Shown here one piece after another: positions 12,994 to 21,844 of a DNA stretch of 31,364 nt; position 1 is the first letter of the stretch, and every line of letters begins with the position of its first letter. The position numbers and the translations under genes were made by a program. Source of the DNA: Candidatus Hodarchaeota archaeon (GTDB taxonomy: Archaea > Asgardarchaeota > Heimdallarchaeia > Hodarchaeales > Hodarchaeaceae). The stretch is taken from contig JAEOTQ010000106.1 in assembly GCA_016839785.1 (NCBI GenBank), positions 1 through 31,364 of the forward strand, in the 5' to 3' direction. The notes under the pieces were generated by a model. That model was not told the DNA's origin. It worked only from the letters and a program-made list of their open reading frames with translations, and searched no databases.

Positions 12994-13995
12994 TTGGTGA
13001 GAAAATTGGCGATTGAACCACAATATGCTATTGAAGTGAAGGGTCTTAGGAAAACCTTCGGTAAAGGGGAGAATAAAGTCGAAGCTGTACGGGGAGTCTC
13101 ACTCCAAGTCAGAAAAGGTGAAATTTTTGGATTTTTAGGTCCAAACGGTGCTGGAAAAACCACAAGTTTACGAATGATGGTAGGACTACTTAATCCTAGT
13201 GCAGGAAATGTGATAATTTTAGGAAAGGATCCTAAAGAGAAACAAAATCAAGATTTTATCAAGGAAAAAATTGGGATCATCCCTCAAGAAGTCTCTCTAT
13301 ATTTGGAATTAACAGTGGAAGAGAATCTATGGTTTATCGCGAATGCTTATCGGGTTCCTTCAGCAGATGCAAAAGTGACGATTGATAAACTAATCAGTGA
13401 TATGGGGTTAGAAGAGAAACGAAAAGCATTGGCGAAGAACCTTTCGGGAGGAATGAAGCGACGATTAAATTTAATAATGGGATTAGTGCATAATCCCGAA
13501 CTAGTCCTTTGTGATGAACCAACACCTGGACTTGATCCTCAATCACGAGTGGTTGTTTGGGAATATATCCAGGACTTACCCAAGCAAGGAAAAACGGTCA
13601 TTTTAACAACCCATTTTATGGAAGAGGCTGATCGTCTTTCAGATCGGGTCGCTATAATCGACAATGGTGAAGTGCTTGTGCTCGACTCTCCTAAAGCTCT
13701 AAAAAAATCCGTTGGCGAAGGCGATCTTGTTGAGTTTATGCTTGAAAATACCGAAAAAGATCATTTGGAACAGATTGCCTCTGCTTTGAGAGAATTTAAT
13801 GGAGGAAAAGCTATACAAGAAGTATACATTTCTTCTAATCGTGTGATCATGCGATCTAAGGATGTTATATCGAATCTTTCACGGATTCTGAACCATATTG
13901 AGGATCAGGGAGCAGAAGTAGAAAACATGGCTATTCGGAATACTACACTTGAGGATGTATTTATTTCCCTCACTGGAAGAGCTTTACGTAATTAA
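12994..13995 (+). CDS. ABC-2 (DrrA-like) exporter ATP-binding protein
   Basis: Walker A GPNGAGKTT, signature LSGGMKRR, DEPTPGLD, TTHFMEEA, C-terminal TLEDVFISLTGR. Confidence 0.95.
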   Translation: MVRKLAIEPQYAIEVKGLRKTFGKGENKVEAVRGVSLQVRKGEIFGFLGPNGAGKTTSLRMMVGLLNPSAGNVIILGKDPKEKQNQDFIKEKIGIIPQEVSLYLELTVEENLWFIANAYRVPSADAKVTIDKLISDMGLEEKRKALAKNLSGGMKRRLNLIMGLVHNPELVLCDEPTPGLDPQSRVVVWEYIQDLPKQGKTVILTTHFMEEADRLSDRVAIIDNGEVLVLDSPKALKKSVGEGDLVEFMLENTEKDHLEQIASALREFNGGKAIQEVYISSNRVIMRSKDVISNLSRILNHIEDQGAEVENMAIRNTTLEDVFISLTGRALRN

Positions 13996-14009
13996 GGGAG
14001 ATATTTTTA

Positions 14010-15380
14010 ATGTTACCCTTGGAAATTGCTAAACGGTTTGGAAAAGAGCTCATCCGAATGCGAATTTCGCTTGTTGTCTTACTGGCTTTACCAGCATTTA
14101 TGGCATTCATGTTTTGGTTCGCCTTTAATAGCGCAGGTCTTGGTTCAACAGAAACATATATCCTAGGAGTTGTAAATGAAGATGAGGGGGTTGCTGATGA
14201 ATTAGCTGCATATTTTCAAGTAGTCAACAGTGTCTATGATACAGGTATCTCCAATACAACATTGACACATGGATTTGCACATGATTTCATCCAATCTTTA
14301 AAGTCAATTAATTATACAAATGAGCAGAATACGGCTGATAACATCCCAATTTTTACTATAGAAGAGTATGATACATCAGAAATAGCATTAAATAACTCTA
14401 ATCCTAATGAAGATGTTGAATCTAGAGACATTGACGCATTACTTTATTTTCCTAGAAATTATTCCAATACAACCCTTTCAGCAGTCAATAATGCGAATTT
14501 CATCCAATCAGGGCTCTATCTCGACGAAAATCCTTTTTGGGTTGGTCCCCCAATTCCAAAATCGGATAATAGTGAACTCAAAATTGTCGGAGACGAAGGT
14601 TATACTCGGTATTTAATTGTTAAAGTGATCCTGAGTAAAATCTTAACTGCATTTATGGAGAATATTCATAATTTCCAATATTCTGGCGGTAATGTTGATT
14701 ATGAAATTAATTCGGTCGCACTTAAAGAATACAGCATATTTGATACAATAATGCCCGGAATCCTTGTATTTGGAATCCTTACACAGTCAGGAATGTTAGC
14801 TGCGTTTCTTGTAAGCGAGTTCGCAGAAACACAAACCATGACTCGTGTCAGATTATCTCTCATAAAACCTTGGGAATATATTATGGGAGTTTCAATCTAT
14901 CAGTTTATTGTCTCATTTTTCCAAATGGGAATTCTTTTCGTTCTGCCCATTTTATTATTAGGTTTTCGTCCTGCAGGAAGTTTAATTGAAGGATTTCTAG
15001 TACTCTTAGTAACTACCGTATTTACGACTGGTTTAGGTTTTGTATTAGCAGGGATATTCACTTCTTCTGATACTGCAGGTCAATCTTCTGGTTTTCTAAT
15101 GACCCCTATTGCTTTCATGTCTGGGGCATTTATGGAGGTTCCTACAATTACTCTATTTCCCAGCGTTATCCCTACAGCTTCAGGAATTCCTCGTGATTTC
15201 ATTTTATGGGATATAATACCAACAACCCATACTGTAAATGCTCTTCGGTCAATTTTATTATATGAATTTTCAGTAACTGATGTTTGGGGTGAACTCATGC
15301 TATTAATAATTCCCTCTATACTTCTTCTAGTATTTGGGATGATTTTCTATAGTAAACGACGATTTGCAGGAGATATCTAG
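14010..15380 (+). CDS. ABC-2 type permease with large extracellular loop
   Basis: One N-terminal TM, soluble domain, then five TMs; MPGILVF and PIAFMSGAF motifs; follows the ATPase. Confidence 0.9.
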   Translation: MLPLEIAKRFGKELIRMRISLVVLLALPAFMAFMFWFAFNSAGLGSTETYILGVVNEDEGVADELAAYFQVVNSVYDTGISNTTLTHGFAHDFIQSLKSINYTNEQNTADNIPIFTIEEYDTSEIALNNSNPNEDVESRDIDALLYFPRNYSNTTLSAVNNANFIQSGLYLDENPFWVGPPIPKSDNSELKIVGDEGYTRYLIVKVILSKILTAFMENIHNFQYSGGNVDYEINSVALKEYSIFDTIMPGILVFGILTQSGMLAAFLVSEFAETQTMTRVRLSLIKPWEYIMGVSIYQFIVSFFQMGILFVLPILLLGFRPAGSLIEGFLVLLVTTVFTTGLGFVLAGIFTSSDTAGQSSGFLMTPIAFMSGAFMEVPTITLFPSVIPTASGIPRDFILWDIIPTTHTVNALRSILLYEFSVTDVWGELMLLIIPSILLLVFGMIFYSKRRFAGDI

Positions 15381-16697
15381 ATGAACTTGACCATTAGAAT
15401 TTTCATTCGGTCATTCAAACAGGTCATTCGATCTCCAGCACGGCTTTCCCTCATCATAGGCTTCCCAATCTTTTTTATTATGATTTTTGCATTTATTTTT
15501 GGAGGAGGCGTTGATGAAACAACGGTATCTCTAGGATTCCTTAACCTTGATGATTCAGGACTGCTGGAATCTGATTGGGAAGAGGATTTTACTAACTTCA
15601 CAGACGCGTGGGGAGATAATGATTCAATAAATCCATTTACAGTAGGATTTGGAGAATACTTTGTTAGGAGTCTAGAAGGTCAAGCGAATTTAGACATATC
15701 TAATAGCACGTTTCGAATAGTGGAGTTCAATTCTATAGATGAAATGCTTGTTTCTGTGCAAAGTAGGGCTGTTTCAATCGGGATTGTAATACCCAGTGAT
15801 TTTTCACTCGCAGTTTTATCTGGACTTAATTCACGTGAAACTATTCTTACTGGACAACCAATTGTGGATAATTCTTTGATCTTAAGACAAAACCTAACCA
15901 TCAATATTCTTGGTGATCCAAGCTTTTTAGCGTTTCAAACTGGCCTTACAGAAGTTGAAAATGCGCTAGATAGTTTTCAATCTCAAGTCTATGGAATACA
16001 GGTTCCAGCAGGTAACTTTCAATCGGTTTTTGAAAATGTTGTAAGCTATGAATTAACCCAGTTCGACTATTTCATCTCTGGATTCTTTACGTTTGGGCTA
16101 ATCCTAACTTCAAGCGGTATTGCTGGTATCATTGGTGAAGAACGGGACTATCGGACACTGGAAAGACTCAAATTAAGCCAGGTAAAACCTGCTGAATATC
16201 TCCTTGGTATCTCTCTTAATCAAATAGTCCTTGCTATTATTCAGGTTGTCATAATGTTTGGTGCAGCCTATCTTTTTGGGTTTAGAGGTCAAGGAAATCC
16301 AATTTTTGCAGCATTAATAGCAATTATTACTCTTCTTCCAGTTTTAGGATTGGCTGTATTTGTAAGTGCATTTGTACCTAATGGCCGTGATGCTAATGGA
16401 GTGATTGCAATGCTCAGTGCCCCTATAGGATTTGTATCAGGTGCATTCCTTCCTGTTCCAGAAATTCCACTAATTCAAAATCTCGTCCCTGATGGATCGG
16501 GTTCACTTCGAGCATTGCAATTATGGGATTTCTTCCCGTTTCATGCATCTACAAAAGCCATAAGGAATATCTTACTATTTGATCACTCCTTTGCCCAAAT
16601 TCTGCCAGATTTATTCTTTTTGATTATTGGTGGTCTACTGTTCTTCGGTTTTGGTATGTTCTTCTTTGTTAAAAGGATATTCACCCCAGAAAATTAG
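15381..16697 (+). CDS. ABC-2 type permease (paralog of the preceding gene)
   Basis: EERDYRTLERL and PIGFVSGAF motifs; start abuts the previous stop. Confidence 0.9.
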   Translation: MNLTIRIFIRSFKQVIRSPARLSLIIGFPIFFIMIFAFIFGGGVDETTVSLGFLNLDDSGLLESDWEEDFTNFTDAWGDNDSINPFTVGFGEYFVRSLEGQANLDISNSTFRIVEFNSIDEMLVSVQSRAVSIGIVIPSDFSLAVLSGLNSRETILTGQPIVDNSLILRQNLTINILGDPSFLAFQTGLTEVENALDSFQSQVYGIQVPAGNFQSVFENVVSYELTQFDYFISGFFTFGLILTSSGIAGIIGEERDYRTLERLKLSQVKPAEYLLGISLNQIVLAIIQVVIMFGAAYLFGFRGQGNPIFAALIAIITLLPVLGLAVFVSAFVPNGRDANGVIAMLSAPIGFVSGAFLPVPEIPLIQNLVPDGSGSLRALQLWDFFPFHASTKAIRNILLFDHSFAQILPDLFFLIIGGLLFFGFGMFFFVKRIFTPEN

Positions 16698-16803
16698 GAA
16701 GATCATGAAACACTTAAAGGAATATTACTACTTAAATCCACTGAGGCTAAGAAAGCACTTGATGAAACAAAAACAGATGATAATTTGACAATAGGTTTTC
16801 ATA

Positions 16804-17718
16804 ATGCGCCTAAGACCACCAGAAGAAACCCTACACTCCTGGTCCTTTCCCCATCGAATGTTTTATCAACTAATTAAACTAGTTCTCCCCAGATTTATCC
16901 GCCTCTATTTTCAGTTTGAAGTAAAAAATGTTGAATTCCTAGAGAAGTTACCTGAAGGAGTACCAGTGATATATTGCTTTAATCATCGATCGCATTTGGA
17001 TACCTTCCTTTTTGCTAGTGCGTTGGTGTATCCTTTTGGAAATAGGACCGCATGCGGATTAATGACAAATGGCAATGTAATGGAAGAAAATAAATTTTTC
17101 TATCTACTCAAGCACTTGGGAGCGTATCCTGTTTATCCCCAGAACTCCACACCAGCTCTGGATCATACGATAAAACTCCTTGACGATAATTTAGCCGTTC
17201 TGATTGCTCCTCAGGGTAAACGAATTCCAACTACACCTTTAGATGATTATCACAATTTAGTCGAACAGGGAAAATCAGGAGTAGGAAGACTGGTATTAAG
17301 AAGTAAGGGTAAAATTCCAGTAGTACCTATGTATATTCATGGCTCTTATGAAGCACTTGCTTTTGGAAAAATGATTCCAAAAATTAAATCTTATATTTCA
17401 GTGTCAATCTGCAAACCAATTATTTTTGCTGAAGAGAGACGAGAAGATGAATGGACTGAATCTGACCTAGTATTTCATTCTAGAGCGAGGGCGATAAGCA
17501 AGGTAATTATGGCATCGATTCGAAAACAAATGCAATTTGAGGAACAGTACTTCTTCCAAATCCTATCCCGAAAGGTACAGCTCCCCCTAGATAGAGTACA
17601 TATTTCTTATCAAACTCACCCCATTGCTTATCGATTTTTCCGAAACCTATTGCGATATTCTCCTGACCAGTTGAAAAAATGGCTCGAATGCAACCCTCAG
17701 ATCAGTGAACACACATAA
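16804..17718 (+). CDS. Lysophospholipid/1-acyl-glycerol-phosphate acyltransferase (PlsC-like)
   Basis: NHRSHLD (HX4D), GAYPV, APQGKR (variant of FPEGTR), PVVPMYI blocks. Confidence 0.85.
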   Translation: MRLRPPEETLHSWSFPHRMFYQLIKLVLPRFIRLYFQFEVKNVEFLEKLPEGVPVIYCFNHRSHLDTFLFASALVYPFGNRTACGLMTNGNVMEENKFFYLLKHLGAYPVYPQNSTPALDHTIKLLDDNLAVLIAPQGKRIPTTPLDDYHNLVEQGKSGVGRLVLRSKGKIPVVPMYIHGSYEALAFGKMIPKIKSYISVSICKPIIFAEERREDEWTESDLVFHSRARAISKVIMASIRKQMQFEEQYFFQILSRKVQLPLDRVHISYQTHPIAYRFFRNLLRYSPDQLKKWLECNPQISEHT

Positions 17719-17835: not shown

Positions 17836-20800
17836 TCATTGGTTATCTTTCTGACTCTTTTTAATACCAAGGGCTTCACGTACATATTCCTCAACTCTTT
17901 TATGTTGATCTTGAGGGGAAAGTTGAGTATCAAGCTTAAGAATTGAAGTGATGTTAGTTCGAAGTCTTTCAAACTTAACTGATTCTTTCATTGCGATATC
18001 ATAATAAAGCTTCATATTTTCTTGCTGTGCAATTCTTAGACATTTATTAATCCAATGTTCCACTTGATTAAACTGAAATGATGCAAGGTCTATTCTTGCT
18101 CTCAACAGGTACACTTGACAGAGTTCAGAGTAGTATTGATTGTTCTCACAGTCATCTTGCCATTTATTTAGCATGGTGAGCATTTTCTTCTTAGCTACCG
18201 GTGAAGGATTACTCAACCAGGTTTTAAATTCGGATGCCACAAGAGCACCTTGACAGATGACTTGAAATTCCACATCTAAATTCTCATTATCTAGGGCTGT
18301 GATCCATTCTTTTTCTGCTGATCCCCAATTTTTCTCCGTTTCAGCAAGTAAGGCTTGGATCATGTGATGGAATGCAACAACAGCGGGATGCTTATACGGT
18401 GGGGTGGGAAAACGTTGAAGGATGTGGCTTTCAGGGGTCAGAATTTGTGTTTCTTTCTGCAGAAGAACTATTCTGAGAGATGTTTCAGCGACCATTCTAT
18501 CGTTTTCTAATAGCTCAAAAACATCCAGAGCGGATTCATACTGCTGGATGGATTTTAAAAATTCACATTGAAGGTAAAGGGCATTAGCTTTTGCTAGTAA
18601 TGTCTTGGCATCTGTTTCAGTTTGCACTAATGCGACATAATCAGTAAATCCTAGTTTTTGAATTTTTAACGCAGTAGGATAATCAGGAGCTTTTAATTTC
18701 GTAATCCAATTTCTTTTTTCAGTTTCTCGTCTGATTCTGACAATAAAGGCTGCTAAGGCAATGTTGGTAATAATAATTAATAATCCTACATGAAATATAC
18801 TGAAACTGATAAGCGGAAAACTCCAAAATTCACGGGGATTAGTCCCCCCTCTATATTCGTCTACATTATGAACCCAATCCCCATCTAAATCGAGTTTCGC
18901 GTCACTTGGATCTTGTGCATTAAGCCCCATTCTAAATTCCCAAACATCAGGCATACCATCAATGTCTCGATCATAAAAAGCGTAGATTTTGTCAATGTAT
19001 TGAAATTCAGGACCAAAATTCATTGGATTTAGAGAACCACTCTCATTATAGTTTTGTATCCAATCACGGAAAGCCACTAATTTCAACTTTTGATTGAGAT
19101 AAATATACAGAGAATCATTAGCTGCTATTTCCTCAATATTTTGGTACATCTCTCGACGAACGTCAATATCCTGTTCAATCGCTGCATCTTCTATCAGAGT
19201 GTTCAAAGATGGATTTTCATATGAGAGCATTGTCGCAAAAACACCATATTGTCCATGTAAATACGGAGCAATAAAATTGTCTGGATCTGCATAATCTGCA
19301 GCCCATCCACAATAATTAAGAGGGATTTTTTGATGCCAAGAGACCTCATCATACTGATCCTGTTCCATGGGTTGTAGAATTGCCCTTATCCCCACATCAC
19401 ACATCACCAGGGAGTTAGCTAGGGATAAGTAGATGTACGAAAGTATTTCGTTATTAACAGGATACACTAATTTAATAGTTCCTTGCCAACCAACTTGCTC
19501 AAATAGTATTCTAGCTGTTTCTAAATCGTAGGAGGGAAGAAGACCCTTTTCTGTTAGATTTTCATTATGACCAAGAATTCCCTCAGGAATGATTCCTTCC
19601 ATCTGTTTCCCAATTCCATTGAGAATATTATCGATATAAAACGAGTAATCAAAAGCACTAGCCATGGCTTTACGGAATATAACCGAAGTAAATGGATTGT
19701 TTTGACTTGCTTTTACTTCACCTTTGGCAAATCGTGATAGGAGACTCGCGTTGTAAATAGAATTTTCTGATTCATTCAGATAGATTTGGGATAGGGATTC
19801 TTTCATATTCATCCCTAGAAAGAATGTGGTAGATGTTGGGGCGGTAAAAGTAGTTATTCCTTCATAAAGCGACTCACCTGCAGGAGTGATGATTTTATAC
19901 GCATCTGGTTTTTCTACATAAACCATATCAGAATCACCATTGATTAAATTTTGAATGCGGGTGTCATCATCTATTTCCGATCTAATTTCGATCTCCTCGA
20001 CAGAATGTAAACTAAATGATCCCCACCAATTGTCATTTTTCTGAAGAAGAATAGAATTTTCAGTTAGCGACTGTAATTTATATGCTCCAGTGCCAATTGC
20101 GTGGTTTTTCATCCATGAATGATAAGAATCACTAAAGCGATGCGATCCAGGGACTACACCAGATATTTTTGGATTATGATCACTCGTCAATCCCAATTTG
20201 GTATAATCCGAGAGGGTGGAAAACCATTTATCCAGAGGAACCATACCATACACTTTATCCCCAATAAACAATGTGTATTCCGTTGGTCGATTATCTATAA
20301 CAGCTTTTGGGGAAACAGCACTTCCTACATCGAACGCGAGAGAATTAATAAATGGTGAATATGCAGACTCAAGGTTGATTTCTAAAGTATAATCATCTAC
20401 AACCACAACTCCTCCTGCATCAAGATAAGCTTGTGCTTCTGTATAATTGGGATTAAAATATTGCATATAGGTTGATCCACCCTTGATAACTTGAGCTATC
20501 ATCCAAGAGGGCCCCCATGGATCGTTCATGAGTATAGATCTATCAATAGAATATTTCATTACGTAGGCGTTAAAAACGACACCATCGTGGAATACAACGT
20601 TCTTACGAAGGTTAAAGGTATATACTCGTCCATTTGGTGAGACAGTCCATCCCGTGGCTAGTCTACCTTCAAGTTCATCGACTGAATTCCCTTTATATCC
20701 AACTAAGGATTCATATATCAATTCAATAATAGTACTCCCAGTGGTCTCATAATTGATCCCTGGATCTAAGGATTTAATGGCATTTGGTATACTCAGTGTT

Positions 20801-20946
20801 TCCCAGATAAATTTATCGGGATTCTTTAGTTCCCCATTTGCCCTAGAAGCGTGTATTACTGCTGTGGAAGGTTGTATGGCAATTAAAATACTCAGAATCA
20901 AAATTGGGAGAATAAATCTAAGATATAGGCCATTCCTAGCAGTCAT
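17836..20946 (-). CDS. Family-5 (peptide/nickel) solute-binding protein fused to DxDGxPD acidic motifs, a TM helix and a cytoplasmic TPR-like domain
   Basis: LDPG..YE, YESLV, LAT.W.VS..G..YTF.LR..V.FHDG, GTGAYKL, GWAADYADPDNF; TM FSIFHVGLLIIITNIALAAFIV followed by RIRRE; GAGGTGA precedes ATG 20946. Confidence 0.88.
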   Translation of the reverse strand: MTARNGLYLRFILPILILSILIAIQPSTAVIHASRANGELKNPDKFIWETLSIPNAIKSLDPGINYETTGSTIIELIYESLVGYKGNSVDELEGRLATGWTVSPNGRVYTFNLRKNVVFHDGVVFNAYVMKYSIDRSILMNDPWGPSWMIAQVIKGGSTYMQYFNPNYTEAQAYLDAGGVVVVDDYTLEINLESAYSPFINSLAFDVGSAVSPKAVIDNRPTEYTLFIGDKVYGMVPLDKWFSTLSDYTKLGLTSDHNPKISGVVPGSHRFSDSYHSWMKNHAIGTGAYKLQSLTENSILLQKNDNWWGSFSLHSVEEIEIRSEIDDDTRIQNLINGDSDMVYVEKPDAYKIITPAGESLYEGITTFTAPTSTTFFLGMNMKESLSQIYLNESENSIYNASLLSRFAKGEVKASQNNPFTSVIFRKAMASAFDYSFYIDNILNGIGKQMEGIIPEGILGHNENLTEKGLLPSYDLETARILFEQVGWQGTIKLVYPVNNEILSYIYLSLANSLVMCDVGIRAILQPMEQDQYDEVSWHQKIPLNYCGWAADYADPDNFIAPYLHGQYGVFATMLSYENPSLNTLIEDAAIEQDIDVRREMYQNIEEIAANDSLYIYLNQKLKLVAFRDWIQNYNESGSLNPMNFGPEFQYIDKIYAFYDRDIDGMPDVWEFRMGLNAQDPSDAKLDLDGDWVHNVDEYRGGTNPREFWSFPLISFSIFHVGLLIIITNIALAAFIVRIRRETEKRNWITKLKAPDYPTALKIQKLGFTDYVALVQTETDAKTLLAKANALYLQCEFLKSIQQYESALDVFELLENDRMVAETSLRIVLLQKETQILTPESHILQRFPTPPYKHPAVVAFHHMIQALLAETEKNWGSAEKEWITALDNENLDVEFQVICQGALVASEFKTWLSNPSPVAKKKMLTMLNKWQDDCENNQYYSELCQVYLLRARIDLASFQFNQVEHWINKCLRIAQQENMKLYYDIAMKESVKFERLRTNITSILKLDTQLSPQDQHKRVEEYVREALGIKKSQKDNQ

Positions 20947-21282
20947 TTGGTTCACCTCAAACCAGTTCGACCATATGAGTCAGTTCTTATTGTAGGGTAT
21001 TGTATTAAATAGTTGGTTTTTGAGGCAACTTGGGAATGGAAAGAAGGGCTGAGGGGATATTAATGCAATTTCTATCAATTTTTCGATATGACAACCCCAA
21101 AAGGATAAATTTGTGAGGGTATCCAAGAATTAATTAATTGAGACTGTCCTTCTCTTTTCCTTTGATCATGGCAAAAATGTACGATTTTAAAAGAAGCGAA
21201 AATAAAGCATTAATTCGAAAGAAAACATCTGGTATTCTATAAGTTTAGATTCTGATGAAGTAAACTAGAAAAAGAGGATGGA

Positions 21283-21844
21283 ATGATGACAAACAAAGTG
21301 TTGATTGCATATGGAACTCGATTCGGAAGTACAGAAGAAATTTCGAGTAAATTTGCAGAGATCATGAGGGACAAGGGATTAGATACAACTGTCATAGACA
21401 TTAAAAAAGATAAATGGCCTTTATTGGATCAATTTGATGCGGTACTAATTGGTAGTAGCATAAAAATGGGAAGATGGACAAAAGAAGCAAAAAACTTCCT
21501 CCAAAAAAAATACCTCAGTTTTGAAGAAGAAATCATTCTTAGCAGTATTTGTAAGCTCAGGGGAAGCTGGAGATCCAGAAAAATATCAGGAAGCGAAAAC
21601 CAAGTACGTGCAGACTGTACTCACAGAAGCAGGTTTCGATTTGAATAAAGTGATGCATGAAGCGTTTGGGGGAGTATTCGATCTGACAAGTGCGTCAAGA
21701 ATGGGTTGGTTAGATAAGAAATTTGCTAATATGGGAGCAAAGGAAGAGGCTAATTTAACTGAAAATGCATATAATGATCTTCGTGATTGGGATCAAATCC
21801 ATGCATTTGCTACTGAGGCTACCACTAGAATTCTTAATCTTTAG
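21283..21844 (+). pseudogene. Flavodoxin-domain protein (HemG-like), frameshifted in an A8 run
   Basis: IAYGTRFGSTEEI, AVLIGSSI, AFGG and DLRDWDQI motifs are split over ORFs 21283-21648 and 21521-21844; A7 instead of A8 at 21503-21510 restores one ORF; may be an assembly error. Confidence 0.85.

Follow-up and report, generated by a model that had tools for sequence, protein, structure and literature searches.

Does a binding protein of the transporter type that continues past its membrane anchor into a large cytoplasmic repeat domain still serve an importer, or has it become a receptor? This question is raised by a gene on the minus strand of contig JAEOTQ010000106.1 from Candidatus Hodarchaeota archaeon (assembly GCA_016839785.1). 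The whole stretch of 31,364 nucleotides that was analysed is called the window here. The gene encodes a family-5 solute-binding protein (SBP5) domain, a short acidic stalk, a single transmembrane (TM) helix and a TPR-type tail. An earlier annotation made from the letters alone (the original prediction) had taken it for a transporter module reused as the ectodomain of a single-pass signalling receptor. According to the analyses described here, the protein may be an enzyme-free transmembrane sensor or adaptor, that is, a type-I receptor dimerised through its tail, and not a transport subunit. We give this reading a probability of about 0.5. The evidence that carries it is the recurrence of the stalk, TM helix and tail as one cassette under unrelated ectodomains, the pairing of cassette genes with SBP5 genes, and the lack of permease genes adjacent to the fused genes. 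The elements of the gene are as follows.

17836..20955, minus strand: whole coding sequence, 1039 residues and a stop codon; GTG start at 20955, alternative ATG at 20946.
20845..20955, minus strand: N-terminal signal-like segment, residues 1–37, with a basic n-region, a hydrophobic core at 9–35 and the end AVIHA before S.
19006..20838, minus strand: family-5 (cluster C, Dpp/Opp/Nik-type) solute-binding domain, residues ~40–650, from Pfam, AlphaFold2 (AF2) and Foldseek; predicted to be extracellular.
18829..18993, minus strand: acidic stalk DRDIDGMPDVWE...DLDGDWVHNVDE, residues ~655–709, with two TSP3-like repeats and then the NPxxFWSxP juxtamembrane motif.
18733..18828, minus strand: single TM helix, residues 710–741, with conserved S..S..H positions; RIRRETEKR comes next.
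17839..18732, minus strand: predicted cytoplasmic TPR-superhelix tail, residues 742–1039 (298 residues), from the alignment, AF2, profile and fold matches.
18670–18690, minus strand: membrane-proximal APDYxTA motif of the tail, ~13 residues past the TM helix.

The ATG at 20946, at which the original prediction had started the protein, is the fourth codon of the 17836–20955 frame. The frame is uninterrupted and contains no internal stops. In a Kyte–Doolittle scan of the 1039-residue protein, two hydrophobic stretches only were detected, residues ~9–35 and 710–741. The scan and the sequence place the signal segment, the stalk and the one TM helix followed by RIRRE where they had been placed before.

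The binding domain was identified using Pfam SBP_bac_5 (PF00496), which matches residues 94–569 with an E-value of 1.4e-58 (199.3 bits against a cut-off of 32.4). The match covers the profile positions 1–364 of 368. The PDB sequence matches are remote, ranging from 1e-24 to 1e-11, and include 5u4o (the best, 2.7e-24), HbpA and DppA. For the full-length AF2 model, the window protein was aligned with its orthologues and with unfused relatives (25 sequences in all), and the mean predicted local distance difference test score (pLDDT) of the model is 83.7. This score exceeds 90 at residues ~45–650, is low in the stalk and comes close to 90 in the tail. Using Foldseek, the ectodomain is aligned with DppA, YliB, NikA, MppA and OppA over their entire lengths, with E-values of 1e-29 to 1e-24 (best 1.3e-29) and TM-scores by target of 0.71–0.86. 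The model thus points to a complete two-lobe family-5 binding-protein fold, in agreement with the family assigned originally. All 13 listed families of curated NCBIfam SBP equivalogs (NikA, DppA, OppA, GsiB, SapA, Opp4A etc.) are below their cut-offs. The best of them, nickel_nikA, reaches 99.3 bits against a cut-off of 393. At E<=1, neither Pfam nor NCBIfam reports a HisKA/HATPase_c, MCP-signal or protein-kinase domain in the window protein.

The stalk contains one exact copy and one variant of the TSP3-like motif (DxDxDGxxDxxE). NCBIfam throspo3_MtsD gives a partial match at residues 653–708 (5.5e-05, far under its cut-off), and PF18884 (Bacterial TSP3 repeat) is not reported for the window protein at E<=1. 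PF18884 is present in the paralogs described below, and the last TSP3 repeats of these paralogs are aligned with the window stalk. The stalk repeats look like the calcium-binding type. In the AF2 model, the helix 721–753 runs on from the membrane region into the cytoplasmic side. The number of Lys/Arg (K/R) residues is 6 in the 15 residues after the TM helix and 2 in the 15 residues before it. Among 53 full-length family members, the C-terminal side is richer in K/R in 48, and an N-terminal hydrophobic signal-like stretch is found in 45. Because of this asymmetry, and because the binding-protein fold and the TSP3-type repeats are located on the N-terminal side, the reading consistent with hydropathy and the positive-inside rule is a type-I topology with the ectodomain outside. 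The tail is therefore predicted, as had been assumed, to be cytoplasmic and not extracellular.

The tail fold, profile and dimer were studied using an alignment of 31 tail rows (A1). The AF2 model of the tail is all-helical with 14 helices (pLDDT 90.4, predicted template-modelling score 0.84). The A1 profile matches consensus TPR proteins at 1.5e-33 and, more weakly, LGN/Pins and Rap. With Pfam at E<=0.01, TPR_2 is reported in 18 and TPR_12 in 17 of the 31 family tails, and no TPR family is reported for the window's own tail. The Foldseek search of the tail against PDB gave nothing at E<=0.001 (best 7.9e-3), and its top rows are all TPR-type or related helical-repeat proteins. VIA-align matches include TSK, APPBP2, PlcR, LGN, NprR, Rap, TOM70 and KLC with Z of 11–15 (maximum 14.9); among the many such matches is DdvA, a transmembrane anti-sigma factor (8rot, Z 12.4). 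In the ESM Atlas, generic bacterial TPR clusters only were found (score 0.96). By profile and predicted fold, the tail is a divergent TPR superhelix, so that the TPR-like character proposed from its sequence patterns is confirmed at both levels. A specific structural relative was rejected, since no Foldseek match reaches E<=0.001 and the Z values are explicable by the helical-repeat shape. Three cysteines of the tail, C161, C206 and C232 (protein residues 901, 946 and 972), occur in 90% or more of the 31 tails. Such cysteines are unusual in a cytoplasmic TPR protein and could form a metal or redox site.

The tail was also modelled as a homodimer. The median of the interaction prediction score from aligned errors (ipSAE) is 0.47 (runs 0.47, 0.35 and 0.52), versus 0.02 for the best control. 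The ipSAE benchmark mark is reached by 20 of 30 same-chain-pair structures and by 1 of 23 single-chain structures, counts which are only rough when the alignment is user-made. At least 88% of the contacts are common to the runs, and the pLDDT of the partner does not fall below 84. The predicted interface is symmetric. The tail residues 134–141 are central, with W137 (protein residue W877) facing W137, and the residues 168–175, 220–223 and 258–266 also participate. According to A1, the interface block holds most of the invariant or near-invariant residues of the family (E132, W137, A140 and W144), and W173 is near. The near-invariant NWG motif (NWGxAE..W) is located at the centre of the interface. 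Self-pairing of the tail via its most conserved motif is thus predicted by the model.

A search with the tail only against 1.84 billion representatives gave 156 matches at E<=1e-3, 120 at <=1e-10 and 52 at <=1e-30. The proteins of group A have the full-length tail at the C-terminus after a single TM helix, and TSP3-type repeats are present before the helix. According to local phmmer, the 72 TM-bearing proteins of group A carry WD40 (45 proteins), SBP5 (13), an unknown N-domain of ~350 residues (4) or NosD/beta-helix (3); another 7 are truncated at the N-terminus. In all 8 classified proteins scanned, WD40 or NosD was confirmed by Pfam, precomputed lists agree for 9 more, and three further N-terminally cut proteins have no Pfam family. 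The proteins of group B are soluble, 330–850 residues long, and match the tail positions ~50–270 only (E down to 1e-28). Canonical TPR_12/TPR_MalT proteins account for 55 of the 56 scanned in group B. Some of these TPR proteins have HisKA/HATPase_c or winged-helix domains, one of them within g1, the genus of the window's genome. Soluble MalT-type TPR proteins are also found near tail genes or elsewhere in g1 (L034:3872–7855 in G061, L045:2140–4554 in G067 and L053:4444–6942 in G059), one with HisKA/HATPase_c.

The membrane regions of 33 group-A proteins were aligned. The common cassette starts at the last two TSP3 repeats and contains the conserved NPxxFWSxP...S..S..H juxtamembrane/TM pattern, followed by APDYxTA. 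The WD40 paralogs have 3–13 TSP3 repeats, versus two in the window protein. A tail search of the class detected the tail in 16 of 83 genomes, all belonging to g1 (15 of 21, and the window's genome), a genus of the Heimdall/Hodarchaeales type. When the A1 profile was applied to 400 Asgard genomes of 85 genera, full-length tails outside g1 were not found, and one weak partial match was observed elsewhere. There are 1–5 tail copies per genome and 2 in the window's genome; copy numbers are perhaps undercounted, as the A1 scan scored six candidates per genome. These results indicate that the stalk-TM-tail cassette is a reusable module confined to one Hodarchaeales-type genus among the genomes searched. 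The original prediction had raised the idea of one tail carrying different ectodomains, and WD40, SBP5, beta-helix and the unknown domain are indeed found on it. Full-text literature searches on Asgard, Heimdallarchaeia and Hodarchaeales found no published description of the family, and public records carry generic names.

The genes of the cassette proteins are often paired with SBP5 genes. The second tail gene of the window's genome, C170:3703–7221, is of the WD40 type and begins 8 nt after an SBP5 gene. The partner protein consists of 645 residues and has a C-terminal TM anchor and a short K/R tail. Among 18 WD40-tail genes of 8 genomes, a same-strand SBP5 gene is located directly upstream in 10, with gaps of 8–145 nt. 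In the remaining genes, the SBP5 neighbour is divergent in 1 of the 18, and a contig end is reached in 2; the others are considered below. The partners were identified with Pfam PF00496 for six and with phmmer to the C170 protein for the others. They have the usual archaeal layout, in which a signal and the SBP5 domain are followed by a Ser/Thr linker, a TM anchor and some K/R residues, and they form at least three subfamilies tracking the tail clades.

Some further features of these loci were observed. In the partners G000:C170:1757–3694 (plus strand, window's genome) and L041:9910–11838 (minus strand), SBP_bac_5 is matched in a swapped order, profile positions 143–365 and then 15–141, suggestive of a circularly permuted binding-protein fold. 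At C173:333–6077 of the window's genome, the gene of a 1002-residue SBP5-like protein (TM-anchored, with a poly-Thr linker) is divergent from that of a 914-residue protein. The latter combines FG-GAP/PQQ-like propeller repeats and numerous TSP3 repeats with one TM helix, and its tail is only ~55 residues long. Thus, SBP5 also adjoins a propeller-TSP3-TM protein without the TPR tail. In four loci of one clade, L002:2418–3736 (= G000:C170:7245–8563, minus strand), L037, L040 and L044, the gene of a ParA/MinD-like ATPase (AAA_31, ParA; 257 residues) is present directly downstream of the WD40-tail gene. A conserved open reading frame (ORF) of 181 residues lies beside the ATPase in at least two of them (C170 and L037). 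Weaker ParA-like matches are located 3–4 kb downstream of the tail gene in L042 and L048.

How the fused gene was formed is suggested by its closest unfused relative on the binding-domain side. This is an anchored SBP5 of 796 residues in G066, with 45% identity over 631 residues, and its gene is located 59 nt upstream of a WD40-tail gene. The alignment stops at the window residue 656, just past the shared ...ESGSLNPM.F.P...IDK. Beyond this point, the window protein enters the TSP3 cassette, and the G066 protein runs into a linker and anchor of its own. A maximum-likelihood tree was calculated from 28 tails, leaving aside P0028, P0062 and P0069; the 7 fused tails among them group together as one clade (99/99), and the G049 orthologue is outside A1. 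We infer from these comparisons that an SBP5 gene fused once with the 3′ part of a neighbouring tail gene to give the window gene. In the case of a single fusion, the window protein would be a Rosetta-stone for the partnership between the SBP and the receptor.

In the proposed mechanism, the family-5 'Venus-flytrap' domain would stand outside the cell on the short TSP3 stalk after export and signal-peptide cleavage. One TM helix would cross the membrane, and the TPR superhelix of ~300 residues would be placed in the cytoplasm. In most of its carriers the cassette is located under WD40 propellers, with an orphan anchored SBP5 gene usually preceding the cassette gene. By the fusion, the binding domain would have been joined directly to the last two stalk repeats, the TM helix and the tail. 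A peptide-like or other small ligand would close the binding domain, and the closure would alter the geometry or association of the receptor dimerised through the tail. The altered dimer would then allow a different cytoplasmic partner to dock on the TPR platform. Ligand sensing, signal relay and a cytoplasmic partner are what this layout suggests.

Other explanations should be weighed against the receptor. The source metagenome-assembled genome (MAG) is fragmented (248 contigs, 84.5% complete), and the gene might be an assembly chimera, or a gene in decay whose extension means nothing. However, the fused SBP5-tail form is found in 8 of 22 g1 genomes (the window's own, G054, G049, G052, G053, G061, G055 and G066), and the fused frames are open in all of them with 1039–1074 residues. 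Further metagenome proteins have the same architecture. These database orthologues of 1028–1049 residues are labelled 'hypothetical protein' or 'ABC transporter substrate-binding protein', and their source names, Heimdallarchaeota and Hodarchaeales, agree with the Asgard lineage suspected originally. Logan contigs from other runs span the tail/TM/stalk/SBP5 junction (X2 at 18672–19650 and X4 at 18808–19401). In one RNA-library run, 95–99%-alike contigs are found on the binding-domain part and on the tail part, which is compatible with expression. According to the Nei–Gojobori method, the ratio of nonsynonymous to synonymous substitution (dN/dS) against the two closest orthologues is 0.11–0.12 for SBP5, 0.11–0.14 for the stalk and TM helix, and 0.08 for the tail; the remoter pairs are saturated at synonymous sites. 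All parts of the fused gene are under purifying selection. Misassembly and pseudogene were rejected on the basis of the 8 genomes, the junction-spanning contigs and the dN/dS of ~0.1 in each part of a frame without stops, and the chance of an artefact is negligible. The fusion is kept in relatives, as a real receptor gene had been expected to be.

The protein could also be an ordinary substrate-binding subunit of an ABC importer encoded elsewhere, the TPR tail being an accessory, for example for transporter clustering or regulation. In favour of this, purifying selection acts on an intact SBP5 fold, the partner SBPs are TM-anchored, which is the usual state of archaeal SBPs, and public records use the transporter name for the orthologues. 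In addition, 13 BPD_transp_1 matches are present on six other contigs of the window's genome. However, no permease adjoins any of the 8 fused orthologues. In the same genomes, remoter relatives of the binding domain (33–42% identical) do adjoin permeases and serve as an internal control (own C52:13703–15961 with the permease at 16146–17234; G049:C47, G053:C227 and G052:C162). BPD_transp_1 was not found within the window or on its contig (C60), nor on the fused-orthologue contigs of G054, G049, G052, G053 and G066. In the 11 genomes searched, contigs with a pair or a fused gene have no BPD_transp_1 except G061:C5 and G062:C7, and the permease on G062:C7 is ~37 kb from the tail-family gene. The genome-wide search left out G055 and G064; for G055, only the neighbourhood was scanned, and no permease was found among seven ORFs. 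The same tail on WD40 and beta-helix ectodomains without a transport role, and the NCBIfam transporter-SBP equivalogs all far under their cut-offs, also speak against a transport subunit, which we regard as quite unlikely. Gene context gives no sign of a co-transcribed dppBCDF-type subunit, in keeping with the original prediction. A surface scaffold or adhesin is another explanation, judged doubtful. In this case, the cassette would anchor assorted ectodomains on a Ca-stiffened stalk, and the TPR tail would tie them to a cytoplasmic lattice, the cytoskeleton or a positioning ATPase with no relay. A scaffold would fit the very different ectodomains on one cassette, the tail without an enzymatic domain, and the paralogs' TSP3 arrays, whose length (up to 13 repeats) suggests a spacer role. 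The ParA/MinD-like gene after the WD40-tail gene in the four loci, and the weaker matches in two more, can be read in the same way. A ParA-like neighbour is found neither at the window gene nor at its orthologues, however. The close pairing with SBP5 genes points to sensing, as do the TPR relatives that carry histidine-kinase or helix-turn-helix (HTH) modules.

Several points weigh against the enzyme-free receptor itself. The transporter-type fold is intact and several Dpp/Opp-type permease sets are present elsewhere in the genome, so that the protein may serve an unlinked transporter. In G061 (1 of 8 genomes), an ABC importer is located ~6 kb from the fused gene on contig C5; it is set apart by an opposite-strand pyruvate kinase gene, and a PhoU-like gene lies beside it. 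The SBP5 neighbour is absent at 5 of the 18 WD40-tail genes. The backbone of the tail tree leaves the sister paralog of the fused clade unsettled, and the donor pair is indicated from the binding-domain side only. The window tail is under every Pfam TPR cut-off (TPR_12, 12.1 bits versus 30.1, E 0.24), and the tail matches with Z of 12–15 are within the range that helical repeats attain by shape alone. The dimer is a model confidence obtained from a user-made alignment. Neither an output enzyme nor a DNA-binding domain was found in the window protein by Pfam and NCBIfam. The RNA-library contigs do not prove transcription. Finally, the genomes are related MAGs, and the cross-genome counts are not independent.

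The neighbouring genes in the window are as follows.

16804–17718, plus strand: PlsC-like acyltransferase gene, convergent neighbour of the SBP5-TPR gene.
21283, plus strand: start of the flavodoxin ORF, divergent neighbour of the SBP5-TPR gene.
12994–16697, plus strand: ABC ATPase and two ABC-2 permeases, exporter-type and not Dpp/Opp.

The convergent and divergent neighbours are thus present as described before. The earlier statement that the window contains no Dpp/Opp permease or ATPase stands, with the qualification that an exporter-type ABC ATPase and two ABC-2 permeases are encoded. A link to this exporter was rejected, as it is not retained near the orthologues except for one permease fragment in G052. 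The flavodoxin at 21283–21844 (plus strand) consists of two overlapping ORFs of 121 and 107 residues. Flavodoxin_5 is matched by the first ORF alone, and there the match is limited to the N-terminal half of the profile. A frameshift is the apparent cause, or else the gene is a pseudogene or the sequence is in error. The acyltransferase gene adjoins the fused gene in the window's genome, G054, G049 and G053, is one gene off in G052, and is absent beside the fused gene in G061, G055 and G066. Its orientation relative to the fused gene switches between convergent and divergent across the five closest genomes (loci L030–L033 and the window), which indicates local inversions. A functional link to the acyltransferase was rejected because of the flipping orientation and the absence in three genomes, which we read as inherited synteny and not as an operon. 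In G061, a prolyl oligopeptidase gene adjoins the fused orthologue.

The window protein was compared with known systems. The WD40-TSP3-TM-TPR proteins of the genus, named only 'WD40 repeat protein' or 'hypothetical protein' in databases, share the homologous last TSP3 repeats, the juxtamembrane motif, the TM helix, the tail of ~300 residues (32–47% tail identity) and the predicted topology. They have WD40 propellers of ~600 residues and 3–13 TSP3 repeats, whereas the window protein has one family-5 domain and two repeats. No SBP5 partner gene precedes the window gene, since the partner forms part of the protein itself. The anchored archaeal family-5 binding proteins (e.g. C52:13703–15961) have the same signal, complete SBP_bac_5 fold and C-terminal TM anchor, with 33–46% identity within the genus. 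They stop a few K/R residues past the anchor, and the distant ones are located beside permeases, whereas the window protein continues into the 298-residue TPR tail.

Receptors built on a binding-protein fold include the BvgS-type Venus-flytrap histidine kinases, LuxP/LuxQ, TorT/TorS, the DppA/MBP-chemoreceptor pairs and the animal natriuretic-peptide receptors. In all of these, a binding-protein fold outside the cell is coupled to a membrane-spanning protein, either fused or as a co-receptor, and the natriuretic-peptide receptors also have a similar single-pass type-I layout. Among known systems, such receptors would be nearest to the window protein in their way of working. The window protein differs from them in its family-5 (cluster C) putative sensor, in its bare TPR platform without a kinase, cyclase or methyl-accepting domain, and in its Asgard host. 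The tail resembles the RNPP TPR sensors at the fold level (PlcR, Z 13.6; NprR, 13.2; Rap, 13.0), and its positions ~50–270 are homologous to the soluble TPR_12/TPR_MalT proteins. The MalT and RNPP proteins (Rap, NprR, PlcR) are soluble and have HTH, phosphatase, kinase or NTPase modules. The window tail lacks any module of this sort and is held at the membrane beneath an ectodomain. The tail also has motifs of its own, APDYxTA, NWGxAE..W and the three near-invariant cysteines.

Transmembrane signalling in prokaryotes usually has kinase or methyl-accepting outputs, and the Hodarchaeales-type Asgard archaea are the lineage held closest to eukaryotes. We tentatively propose, as something that may well prove wrong, that these archaea evolved a modular family of enzyme-free, dimerising type-I receptors with swappable ectodomains, a stalk that binds calcium, one TM helix and a TPR tail for adaptor docking. 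Orphan SBPs would act as co-receptors that capture the ligand, fused in here, and the logic of adaptor recruitment would be that of eukaryotic single-pass receptors. If the receptor reading is true, the archaeal lineage nearest to eukaryotes built a class of prokaryotic transmembrane sensors without enzymatic output out of a piece of a transporter, and the family illustrates the recruitment of binding proteins from transport into sensing. As unfused pairs and the fused gene occur within one genus, the fusion predicts an interaction between the SBP and the receptor. The small, well-folding tail with its predicted dimer interface, and the soluble ectodomain, which lends itself to ligand screens, would make this a testable link from the surface to the cytoplasm for Asgard cell biology. 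If the cassette is an anchor only, it would still be a lineage-specific surface-protein cassette hidden under the names 'ABC transporter substrate-binding protein' and 'WD40 repeat protein'.

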